30,845 nucleotides of DNA from an uncultured Hyphomicrobiales bacterium (GTDB lineage Bacteria; Pseudomonadota; Alphaproteobacteria; Rhizobiales; Kaistiaceae): assembly GCA_964407155.1 (NCBI GenBank), contig CAYOUO010000050.1, forward strand, positions 1 through 30,845, written 5' to 3'. Each line of letters starts with the position of its first letter. Position 1 is the stretch's first letter. Shown here one piece after another: positions 1 through 2,229 of this stretch. The notes beneath the pieces are model-generated. The model saw only the letters and a program-made list of their open reading frames with translations, did no database searches and was not told the origin of the DNA. Made by a program: the position numbers and the translations under genes.

Positions 1-44
1 TGCGTAGGATACCCGATTTTGCCGACTAGTACAAACAGGGAACA

Positions 45-203
45 TCAACTCTCGTCGCTAGGCTCGAGACGATGTTTCGGCCGCCGTTTGTACACGCCAG
101 GGCTGTTGACCAGGCGCTGGCGGTATTTGGGCGACCGCAGGTCGCGCGCCAGCGGGTTGCGCCGCACAGGCTTTTTGCCGGTGCTTGGCCGGGCCTTCTT
201 CAT
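45..203 (-). CDS. Small basic protein (52 aa), ArfA-like alternative ribosome-rescue factor candidate; absent from the ORF track
   Basis: Hand translation from ATG at 203 to TGA at 45-47: [52 protein letters not shown]. The pattern N-x5-L-x2-P-x-[YF]-RQR...G-x-Y-x-R-x2-KH matches E. coli ArfA as I recall it. GGGG lies 8-11 nt upstream. Confidence 0.6.
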
Positions 204-234
204 TGTTGCAACCCCGCTGCGCTCATGTCTTCGA

Positions 235-263
235 TTGACCCTTTGCGGGCGGTTTCATATCTG
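235..263 (+). promoter_or_regulatory. Putative def promoter (TTGACC-N17-TATCTG; also readable as RpoH-like TTGAC-N16-CATATCT)
   Basis: TTGACC at 235-240, 17-nt spacer, TATCTG at 258-263, 6 nt before the GTG at 270. Confidence 0.45.
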
Positions 264-269
264 AGGGGC

Positions 270-806
270 GTGTCGAAGCTTGAAATTATCACCCTTCCCG
301 ATCCCCTGCTGAGAAGCCGTAGTCTGCCCGTCGAACGGGTGGACGGCGAGCTGCGCGCTTTCATGGACCAGATGCTGGAGACCATGTACGACGCGCCCGG
401 CATCGGCCTGGCCGCCGTTCAGGTCGCGGTGCCCCGGCGCATCGTCACCGTCGATGTTGCCCAGCGCGAGGACAAGGACGCGCCTGCCGCGCCGCTGTTT
501 CTCATCAACCCGGAGATCCTCTGGGCCTCGGATGAGCGCGCCGCGGCGGAGGAGGGCTGCCTGTCGATCCCGGAGTATTTCGCCGAAGTAGAGCGCCCGG
601 CAAAGGTCCGGGTCGCCTACCTCGACGAGAACGGCAAAAGGCAGGAGATCGAGGCCGATGGTATCCTCGCCGTCTGCCTTCAGCACGAGATCGACCATCT
701 CGATGGCAAGCTGTTTATCGATCGTCTTTCGAAGCTGAAACGCGACATGGTTATCAGGAAGTTCACCAAGCAGGCCCGCGTTGGCAGCCGGCCGGCCGCT
801 CTGTAA
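270..806 (+). CDS. def: Peptide deformylase
   Basis: Motifs [13 protein letters not shown] and QHEIDH. Start moved from the track's 72 to GTG 270 ([15 protein letters not shown]), which matches the typical Def N-terminus. Confidence 0.96.
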
Positions 807-944: not shown

Positions 945-1202
945 ATGATTAGCAAGACCGTAATGGCTTTGGCCATCGTTTCGGCAATTGGATTGGCCGG
1001 CTGCACCACGGACGAGAAGATCGCCTCGGGTGCGGGCATTGGTGCGGCGATCGGTGGGGTCGCGACCAATTCGGTGGGTGGCGCTCTCATCGGCGCGGGC
1101 GTGGGCGCTGTCACGGCGGCTGTCCTCGTCAGCAATCACCACAACGGGTGGTGCACATATCGTTCACCGCATGGTCACGTTTACAACGCGCGCTGCCGTT
1201 AA
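945..1202 (+). CDS. Small glycine-zipper lipoprotein (85 aa) with His/Cys-rich C-terminus
   Basis: GGAG RBS before ATG 945. Signal peptide ends in lipobox LAGC, followed by a GAGIGAAIGG...GALIGAGVGA zipper and tail HHNGWC...HGH...CR. Confidence 0.85.
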   Translation: MISKTVMALAIVSAIGLAGCTTDEKIASGAGIGAAIGGVATNSVGGALIGAGVGAVTAAVLVSNHHNGWCTYRSPHGHVYNARCR

Positions 1203-1305: not shown

Positions 1306-2229
1306 CTGCGCATAGCCTTTTTCGGGACGCCCGCCTTTGCGGTGCCGACCCTCAGCGAACTCATCGGACATTCCCACGACGTCGCCGCGGTCTATACCCA
1401 GCCGCCGCGGGCAGCCGGTCGCGGCATGGGCGCGCGCCGCTCGCCAGTGCATGAAGCCGCGGACCGCTTCGGCCTTCAGGTTTTCACGCCCGAGCGACTG
1501 AAGGCGGAAGGCGAGGCGGAGCGCTTCCAGGCGCTCGGCGTCGAGGCCGGTGTGGTCGTCGCCTACGGCCAGATCCTGCCGCGTGCTTTTCTCGTCGTCC
1601 CGGCGAACGGCTGCCTCAACCTGCACGCCTCGCTCCTGCCGCGCTGGCGCGGGGCCGCTCCGATTGCGCGCGCCATCATGGCGGGCGATCCCGAGACCGG
1701 CGTCATGGTCATGCGCATGGAGGCGGGTCTCGATACCGGACCAATCGCGATGAGCGAGCGTGTTACTATCGCACCCGACGCGACGGCCGGCGAATTGACG
1801 GAGCGGCTGGCGGTGCTCGGCGCCGACCTGATGGTGCGGGCGCTGGCGGCGTTGTCGCGCGGCGGCCTGTCGTTCGCGCCGCAGGCCGACGAGGGTGTCA
1901 CTTATGCGGCCAAGCTCGACAAGAACGAGACCCGCATCGACTGGACGCGTCCGGCCGCTGAAGTGCACAACCACATTCGCGGGCTGTCGCCCGATCCCGG
2001 TGCGTGGTTCGAGCTCGACCTCGGCAAGGCGCCCGAGCGCGTCAAGGTGCTGAGGTCGCAATGCGCGGACGGCGCCGGCGAGCCCGGCGCCGTGCTGGAT
2101 GGTGCGCTGACCGTCGCGTGCGGAACGGGAGCCGTCCGGCTGCTCCAGATCCAGCGTGCCGGCAAACAGCCGGTCGCGGCGGCCGAGTTTCTGCGCGGCC
2201 TGCGCGCGCCGCTTATTCGCCTCGCCTGA
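1306..2229 (+). CDS. fmt: Methionyl-tRNA formyltransferase (start uncertain: CTG 1306, or frameshifted GTG 1289)
   Basis: Motifs [33 protein letters not shown] and GLDTGP. The conserved [13 protein letters not shown] is encoded in frame upstream of the track's GTG 1342. In-frame TAA at 1294-1296. Confidence 0.93.

Follow-up and report, generated by a model that had tools for sequence, protein, structure and literature searches.

The window, 30,845 nucleotides from an uncultured Hyphomicrobiales bacterium of the Kaistiaceae (contig CAYOUO010000050.1), starts with a small minus-strand ORF that is oriented away from the peptide deformylase gene def (Table 1). The ORF listing contains a single frame of this kind, with an ATG start and 52 codons, as described in an earlier note on this DNA. 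Its product is highly basic, as was also claimed there: 17 lysine and arginine residues stand against 4 aspartate and glutamate residues, giving a net charge of about +13.

The ORF lies antisense to a plus-strand ORF of 244 aa (72..806), and the codon registers of the two coincide. The longer frame contains def, and the suspicion that this call was over-extended proved correct. Its Pep_deformylase domain starts only at residue 70, and conservation of Def among relatives begins around '...KLDIITLPD'. Given the late start of the domain and the lack of conservation upstream of it, we place the start of def at the GTG at 270, which makes the 72-806 frame 66 codons too long. The two divergent starts are then separated by exactly the 66 bp reported earlier. 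The proposal that this interval acts as a shared divergent promoter fits the geometry, but no sigma-70 promoter consensus (nor an intrinsic terminator consensus) was found in a scan of positions 1-420. The SD-like sequence of the small ORF is weak. Upstream of def a promoter-like pair (TTGACC-N17-TATCTG) ends at 261, the only SD-like run (GAGGGG, 263-268) stops 1 nt short of the GTG, and the Def domain begins about 9 nt past it; def may be leaderless or carry a very short leader.

Downstream of def follow fmt and truA. A further small ORF between def and fmt (945-1202, plus strand) encodes a signal of the lipoprotein type (...AIGLAGC) as well as a stretch resembling a glycine zipper, GAGIGAAIGGVATNSVGGALIGAGVGAV, and finds no match in Pfam. 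On the other side, the arrangement seen in Kaistiaceae places the gene of interest between the divergent def and a same-strand rmuC (Pfam RmuC, 201 bits). The window does not include this next gene because the contig edge lies 44 nt past the stop codon of the ORF. A second locus of the same composition (def, small ORF, LexA box and rmuC) is present in the same assembly on contig C372 (L097, 716-874, plus strand), where the small protein, MKKARRPASKKTTRRNPLARALATAKFRQRVVKDSGQYRRRPKHPPPADDES, shares 57% identity with the product of 45-203. The assembly is a MAG of 69% completeness and 2% contamination, and the C372 copy may represent either a true duplication or two related populations binned into one MAG.

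Table 1. Position of the genes and sequence elements discussed in the text. Motif assignments are based on the alignment with E. coli ArfA.
Feature	Position	Strand	Remark
Small ORF, 52 aa	45..203	minus	ATG start, TGA stop at 45-47; small basic protein assigned from sequence to the ArfA superfamily, DUF7230 lineage
N-P-L-A-R-D-L, codons 16-22	138..158	minus	aligns with ArfA N14-L20, the region holding A18
Y-R-Q-R-L-V, codons 27-32	108..125	minus	aligns with ArfA F25-E30, including beta-strand Q27-E30 that pairs with RF2
Y-K-R-R-P-K-H, codons 38-44	72..92	minus	aligns with ArfA Y39-H45, the mRNA-channel tail with the KH motif
R-L-E-P-S-D-E-S, codons 45-52	48..71	minus	acidic tail at the position of the hydrophobic tail of canonical ArfA
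Hairpin, 64 nt	29..92	minus	in the window's transcript, encloses codons 38-52 and the stop; not kept in relatives
GTTC-N7-GTAC box, GTTCCCTGTTTGTAC	29..43	minus	begins 1 nt past the ORF stop, outside the ORF; putative SOS operator of the next gene
Divergent intergenic region, 66 bp	204..269	.	between the ATG of the ORF and the GTG of def
def (peptide deformylase)	270..806	plus	start corrected
fmt	1342-2229		downstream of def
truA	to 2969		downstream of def, after fmt

Conservation of the reading frame

A six-frame search of 60 relatives recovers the frame intact, with a length of 51-58 aa, in the window's own genus and in sister genera. Extending this with a profile to all 87 Kaistiaceae genomes, we find the ORF intact in 43 genomes from 6 of the 13 genera, and uninterrupted everywhere, so that the frame singled out by the earlier note is clearly conserved in relatives. 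Within a 30-codon core of 19 clade members the pairwise differences per site are 0.29, 0.32 and 0.52 for codon positions 1, 2 and 3, respectively. The conserved residues R15, N16, P17, A19, Y38, R40, P42 and H44 are each written with 2-4 synonymous codons. The excess at third positions together with the synonymous codon use indicates purifying selection on the reading frame. The clade consensus reads M-x-K-x-x-K-R-P-...-R-R-N-P-x-A-R-A-L-x(4)-F-R-P-R-V-V-x(5)-Y-K-R-R-P-K-H and is followed by 7-14 mostly acidic residues.

It might be argued that the frame is non-functional, arising by chance in G+C-rich DNA antisense to the extended def, or that it merely encodes a leader peptide regulating rmuC or def. 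The ORF is indeed short, its expression signals are poor (see above) and the window's protein is without a database match. Against this stand the conservation of the amino-acid sequence across genera with synonymous changes and no stops, and the fact that homologues in other alphaproteobacteria sit away from def and rmuC. Moreover, the def extension opposite the ORF is itself unconserved, the Def domain being confined to the part from residue 70 onwards, and between the small ORF and rmuC lies a separate operator for the latter. We consider a non-functional frame extremely improbable, and 45..203 is almost certainly a real protein-coding gene. Synteny with def was also tried as functional evidence and rejected, since ArfA-type genes outside the Kaistiaceae have other neighbourhoods.

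A single-sequence search of 5.8 billion proteins returned one relative only, which is explained by small ORFs rarely being called as genes. A hand-made degenerate DNA pattern yielded 26 loci, 6 of which are chance matches in unrelated phyla. No RNA sequencing runs with the ORF sequence were found; the matches are soil and rhizosphere DNA metagenomes only.

Relationship to ArfA and DUF7230

In scans up to E 10, none of the Pfam and NCBIfam models matches the window's protein, and the Pfam ArfA model (PF03889) has no match anywhere in the window's genome. The gathering threshold of this model (25.5 bits) is reached neither by the window's protein nor by the 4 of 19 clade members that score with it at all (12-15 bits). 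PF23876 (DUF7230) is matched by 15 of the 19, two of them above its 27-bit cut-off (L015 with 39.1 and L019 with 47.2 bits), and both of these align with the window's protein over the full length. These relatives (39-47 bits) thus fall within DUF7230, whereas the window's sequence (no match) and most of its genus (14-25 bits) remain below the cut-off; the second copy on C372 reaches 22.7 bits. Most matches of the clade profile carry PF23876, and NCBI's Bauldia proteins belong to the same profile family, the name given in Bauldia litoralis being 'DUF7230 family protein'. Pfam assigns this family neither a function nor a link with ArfA, and no paper naming DUF7230 was found in the literature library searched. 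The earlier description of the gene as unannotated therefore holds for the window's own protein, but not for its family, which is known to Pfam and of which three members are labelled 'stalled ribosome alternative rescue factor ArfA' by the automatic annotation of JGI.

With the direct Pfam and NCBIfam scans being empty, the connection of the window's protein with ArfA is visible only through profiles. A profile of the 19 clade members, run against 177,635 distinct PDB sequences, places six E. coli ArfA chains on top (E 0.002-0.006), while the next match follows at E 0.54. The HMMER alignment between the clade and E. coli ArfA has the register proposed in the earlier note, including the gap of 3 residues at KGKGS that had been read there as a shorter linker, and the E. 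coli sequence given there agrees with the PDB chains. For comparison at the level of families we collected 28 canonical ArfA genes in the genomes of gamma- and beta-proteobacteria. Aligned with hhalign, 29 DUF7230-like sequences match this set with a probability of 90.4% (E 1.4e-6, 39 columns), so that profiles recover the similarity to the ArfA family even though PF03889 does not match the window's protein directly.

Intermediate sequences are found as well. In G708, an alphaproteobacterium outside the Kaistiaceae from our phylum sample, the ORF MAKRQSPTPPKNPFAKALSSGLFQQKKVRAKKGKGAYIRRQKH... scores 31.6 bits and thus exceeds the Pfam ArfA cut-off, and this ArfA aligns with the clade profile at 96.8% (E 2.2e-10). 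It is located on contig C1 at 1303171-1303375 (L096, 2928-3132, plus strand); its linker reads KKGKGAY, its tail is hydrophobic and a strong hairpin lies within the ORF. When 1.84 billion representative proteins were searched exhaustively with the profile, 786 clusters of short proteins were obtained. Two bridging proteins, P0260 (..RRLNPVAKALRTPVFRPRRVKKLKGKGSYNRRPKH..) and P0265, match at E 7.6e-7 and 8.9e-7 and score 35.7 and 36.4 bits with Pfam ArfA (cut-off 25.5); both combine RxNPxAxAL, KGKGSY and RRPKH. Together with the profile matches, these proteins indicate that the ArfA and DUF7230 families of Pfam form one continuum.

Among short basic peptides, composition can inflate similarity. 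A purely compositional match is made less likely here by the bridging proteins and by the PDB search, which was specific for ArfA. We conclude that the window's protein is very probably homologous to ArfA; as judged from its sequence, it is a member of the ArfA superfamily without the KGKGS insert and belongs to the DUF7230 lineage. The ArfA-type call and the alignment put forward earlier are thereby supported by the PDB search, the profile-profile comparison, the bridging proteins and a distribution complementary to that of ArfB (see below).

The functional parts of ArfA are well described: its tail binds the empty mRNA channel with the KH motif in a pocket, Q27-E30 adds a strand to RF2, and the region of A18 governs RF2 opening (PMC8012679). 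By alignment only, the strand segment corresponding to F-R-Q-R-V-E of ArfA is present, as Y27-R-Q-R-L-V32 in the window and as F-R-P-R-V-V in the clade consensus. The basic C-terminal segment with K-H is present too, with Y38 and R40 invariant and P42 and H44 retained in at least 90% of the members. The RF2-pairing strand and the KH channel tail of ArfA thus coincide in the alignment with the segments that the clade conserves best, whereas A18 is off by one residue. In the helix region R15, N16 and A19 are invariant across the clade. ArfA A18, whose replacement in A18T abolishes RF2 activation, aligns with R20 (variable, R or K) and the invariant A19 lies one position earlier, a helix shift of one residue being beyond the resolution of sequence. 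The KGKGS linker is missing: N-S-P-G-V is found instead, 3 residues shorter and without GKG. G-K-G is the most conserved canonical motif, G35, K36 and G37 of KGKGS being invariant in the 28 canonical sequences. Finally, the tail following KH comprises 7-14 residues that are not conserved in sequence but are acidic in nearly every member. AlphaFold2, run with the family alignment, predicts one helix (residues 17-23) and an otherwise extended chain (pLDDT 77, pTM 0.32), a model that fits a peptide folding on the ribosome.

Overall, the window's protein resembles ArfA of gamma- and beta-proteobacteria (YhdL; PF03889; PDB 5MDV, 5MGP, 5U4I, 5H5U) in being small, basic and free of GGQ. The two also share a coexistence with tmRNA-SmpB and the order of motifs: an N-x-hydrophobic-x-A-L helix region, a (D/S)P-x-F/Y-R-x-R/K-V strand region and a Y-x-R-K/R-x-K-H tail. 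In length the protein approximates the active, truncated form of ArfA. It differs by a basic N-terminus where ArfA has MSRYQHTKGQ, and the clade as a whole differs by its alphaproteobacterial hosts, its scores under the Pfam ArfA threshold, the loss of KGKGS, the short acidic tail, its own stop codon and the lack of any hairpin or terminator conserved within the ORF. The short ArfA of the Pseudomonas type (MSKKRPNKAKSIIAQPLFRSRQERAGKGKGSYRREAFQS...) resembles the Bauldia form more than enterobacterial ArfA does. In it, a short basic N-terminus likewise leads straight into R-(P)N-x-A-K/R-x-hydrophobic, followed by QP-L-F-R-x-R; unlike the Bauldia form, it has KGKGSY, lacks KH and contains a very strong intra-ORF hairpin (p = 0.00-0.03). 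BrfA of Bacillus subtilis and ArfT of Francisella are also small rescue factors that depend on a release factor, and BrfA shares a KH motif and an RF2-pairing strand (PMC8012679). No sequence relationship with either was found, and the BrfA chains in the PDB are not matched by the clade profile at E <= 10.

Stop codon, hairpins and the adjacent SOS box

In canonical arfA an intra-ORF hairpin serves as RNase III site or terminator, so that translation of a non-stop mRNA yields the active protein; in its full-length form the protein carries a hydrophobic tail that destabilises it (PMC8012679). Compared with dinucleotide shuffles, 8 of 9 canonical ArfA genes taken as positive controls have a local hairpin at p 0.00-0.03, and p is 0.00 for the alphaproteobacterial ArfA of G708. 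The 19 Bauldia-like clade members behave differently, with a median shuffle p of about 0.3 and only 3 members at p <= 0.05; these values do not support the conservation of a hairpin or terminator near the 3' end of the clade ORF. Every clade member ends at its own stop, 7-14 codons past KH. Many canonical ArfA frames (L072, L074, L075, L081-L089, L092-L095) end in ...LLAA, ...FLAA, ...SKAA, ...LMAA or ...RQAA and so resemble the C-terminus of the SsrA tag (...ALAA).

The own stop codon, the acidic tail and the absence of a conserved hairpin suggest that the clade protein is made full-length and not from a truncated non-stop mRNA. The Bauldia-like clade has thus probably left tmRNA-gated synthesis. 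An escape from non-stop/tmRNA control had been anticipated in the earlier note, and for the clade the same features speak in its favour; for the window's own copy the idea stands less firmly, as its 64-nt hairpin leaves room for processing.

This hairpin could mean that the window's genome still produces an ArfA-type factor from truncated non-stop mRNA, with RNase III cutting the 64-nt structure and tmRNA gating the level as in E. coli. Its predicted stability is considerable (-24.2 kcal/mol over 68 nt, z = -3.3), though the best local hairpin is borderline at p of about 0.05, and hairpins that also hold the stop codon occur in some canonical ArfA genes (L085, L072). On the other hand, the structure is not conserved (z = -1.3 in the C372 copy; clade median given above), and a cut in its 5' arm would take away part of the essential Y-K-R-R-P-K-H tail. 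Its 3' arm, moreover, is formed by the LexA box in front of rmuC, an element whose conservation has a different cause. Altogether we regard such processing as very unlikely.

As to this box, a GTTC-N7-GT(A/T)C element precedes the start codon of rmuC by a constant distance of about 44 nt in L003, L006, L007, L009, L011, L014, L019 and L097, and contig C287 of the window's genome has a similar box, GTTCTTGCTTTGTAC, 57 nt upstream of lexA. The constant spacing to rmuC and the similar box before lexA identify the element at 29..43 as the likely SOS operator of rmuC, which looks like a LexA-regulated gene in Kaistiaceae. We had also considered the conserved DNA past the stop as the 3' arm of an arfA-style hairpin; this was rejected because its distance is fixed to the start of rmuC and not to the stop of the ORF, and because of the box before lexA. 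With the 3' arm being the rmuC operator, the complementarity in the window is probably incidental.

A different picture is seen in long-tailed DUF7230-type ORFs from other alphaproteobacterial families (L099 and L101 from G317 and G194, and L027 from a Stellaceae MAG). Their tails are unconserved, and a strong hairpin followed by a U-run lies inside the ORF, directly after Y-S-R-K-G-R or Y-I-R-R-P-K-H. This sequence pattern marks it as an intrinsic terminator whose position would yield a non-stop mRNA, like that of canonical arfA.

Occurrence alongside ArfB and the proposed role

ArfB (YaeJ), studied in Caulobacter (PMC4235212), is a backup to trans-translation whose basic C-terminal tail detects that the mRNA channel is empty. 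In a survey from 2024 that covered more than 15,000 genomes, arfB was reported for 2,022 of 2,376 Alphaproteobacteria and arfA for 0 of 2,376 (PMC11633108). We scored ArfB by counting RF-1-domain genes: relatives have two such release-factor genes, presumably RF1 and RF2, and a third copy, where there is one, is ArfB (NF006718, 178-184 bits). For 56 high-quality Kaistiaceae genomes, the ORF is present and ArfB absent in 16, both are present in 6, ArfB alone is present in 34, and both are absent in 0 (Fisher p = 1.8e-9, shared ancestry among the genomes being ignored). All 7 ORF-less genera retain ArfB, and 5 of the 6 ORF-bearing genera are wholly or partly without it; genus g8 retains both. 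No sequence exceeds the cut-off of the ArfB model in those carriers whose genomes are closed or have a completeness of at least 94% (G001, G002, G006, G014, G024, G032, G011, G022, G023, G031). ArfB was likewise not found in 5 of 5 unrelated alphaproteobacteria with a DUF7230 or ArfA-type ORF; it is absent from G708. The window's own genome is 69% complete, and the absence of ArfB cannot be read from it. It does contain a two-piece alphaproteobacterial tmRNA with the tag ANDNYAPVALAA, and 7 of 8 high-quality relatives encode SmpB. The pattern of ORF and ArfB, complementary within the Kaistiaceae, is as expected for two interchangeable backups to trans-translation.

The two proteins are nevertheless very different, ArfB being a GGQ hydrolase of about 140 aa that works independently of RF1 and RF2, whereas the 52-aa protein has no GGQ, no RF-1 domain and no NF006718 match. 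Hydrolysis by the protein itself is impossible without this motif. Our analysis favours a release-factor-dependent rescue factor for non-stop ribosomes, a variant of ArfA, as the likely identity of the protein. On a ribosome halted at the 3' end of a stop-less mRNA, Y-K-R-R-P-K-H would insert into the vacant mRNA entry channel, its KH occupying the KH pocket, and Y-R-Q-R-L-V would supply domains II/IV of a class-I release factor (probably RF2) with an additional beta-strand. With the N-P-L-A-R-D-L helix aiding its opening, the release factor would hydrolyse the peptidyl-tRNA through its GGQ loop. By analogy with ArfA, which pairs with RF2 in a species-specific manner, the partner may be RF2; by analogy with ArfT, it may be either release factor.

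An ArfA homologue might also have taken up another task while associated with the ribosome or RNA, for instance in hibernation or assembly, as a chaperone of nucleic acids or as an accessory protein of the ribosome, keeping the channel tail without recruiting a release factor. The loss of the KGKGS linker and of the A18 register would agree with this, as would the disappearance of ArfA-style regulation, the genus that retains ArfB in addition, and the new, consistently selected acidic tail, which has no counterpart in ArfA. Yet the equivalent of the RF2-pairing strand (F/Y-R-x-R/K-V-V) is among the best-conserved parts, none of the high-quality Kaistiaceae genomes lacks both the ORF and ArfB, and the bridging proteins connect smoothly to true ArfA. 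Such a change of task seems unlikely to us, and we retain the release-factor-dependent rescue factor as the preferred reading. In a wider sense, the balance tips slightly towards some Kaistiaceae and scattered Alphaproteobacteria using an ArfA-type factor instead of ArfB, with the Bauldia-like form rebuilt into a constitutive, full-length protein free of tmRNA control.

According to reviews and the survey mentioned, ArfA is restricted to gamma- and some beta-proteobacteria, next to BrfA in Bacillus (PMC8012679, PMC11633108). The clade protein, by its sequence, is an undescribed variant of a known system in a class thought to lack it; its architecture is changed and its regulation probably as well. 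If true, this would be the first case of an ArfA-type system in Alphaproteobacteria, and also of an ArfA relative made other than from non-stop mRNA. It would also provide a function for Pfam DUF7230, a family with at least several hundred metagenome sequence clusters, and suggest that small rescue factors are under-counted by surveys at the nucleotide level or with a single HMM. The clade would offer a natural experiment, namely an ArfA relative without the non-stop-mRNA/tmRNA feedback loop thought typical of the family, and Bauldia litoralis is a cultured carrier that lacks ArfB. For alphaproteobacteria without ArfB, the finding would explain what backs up trans-translation.
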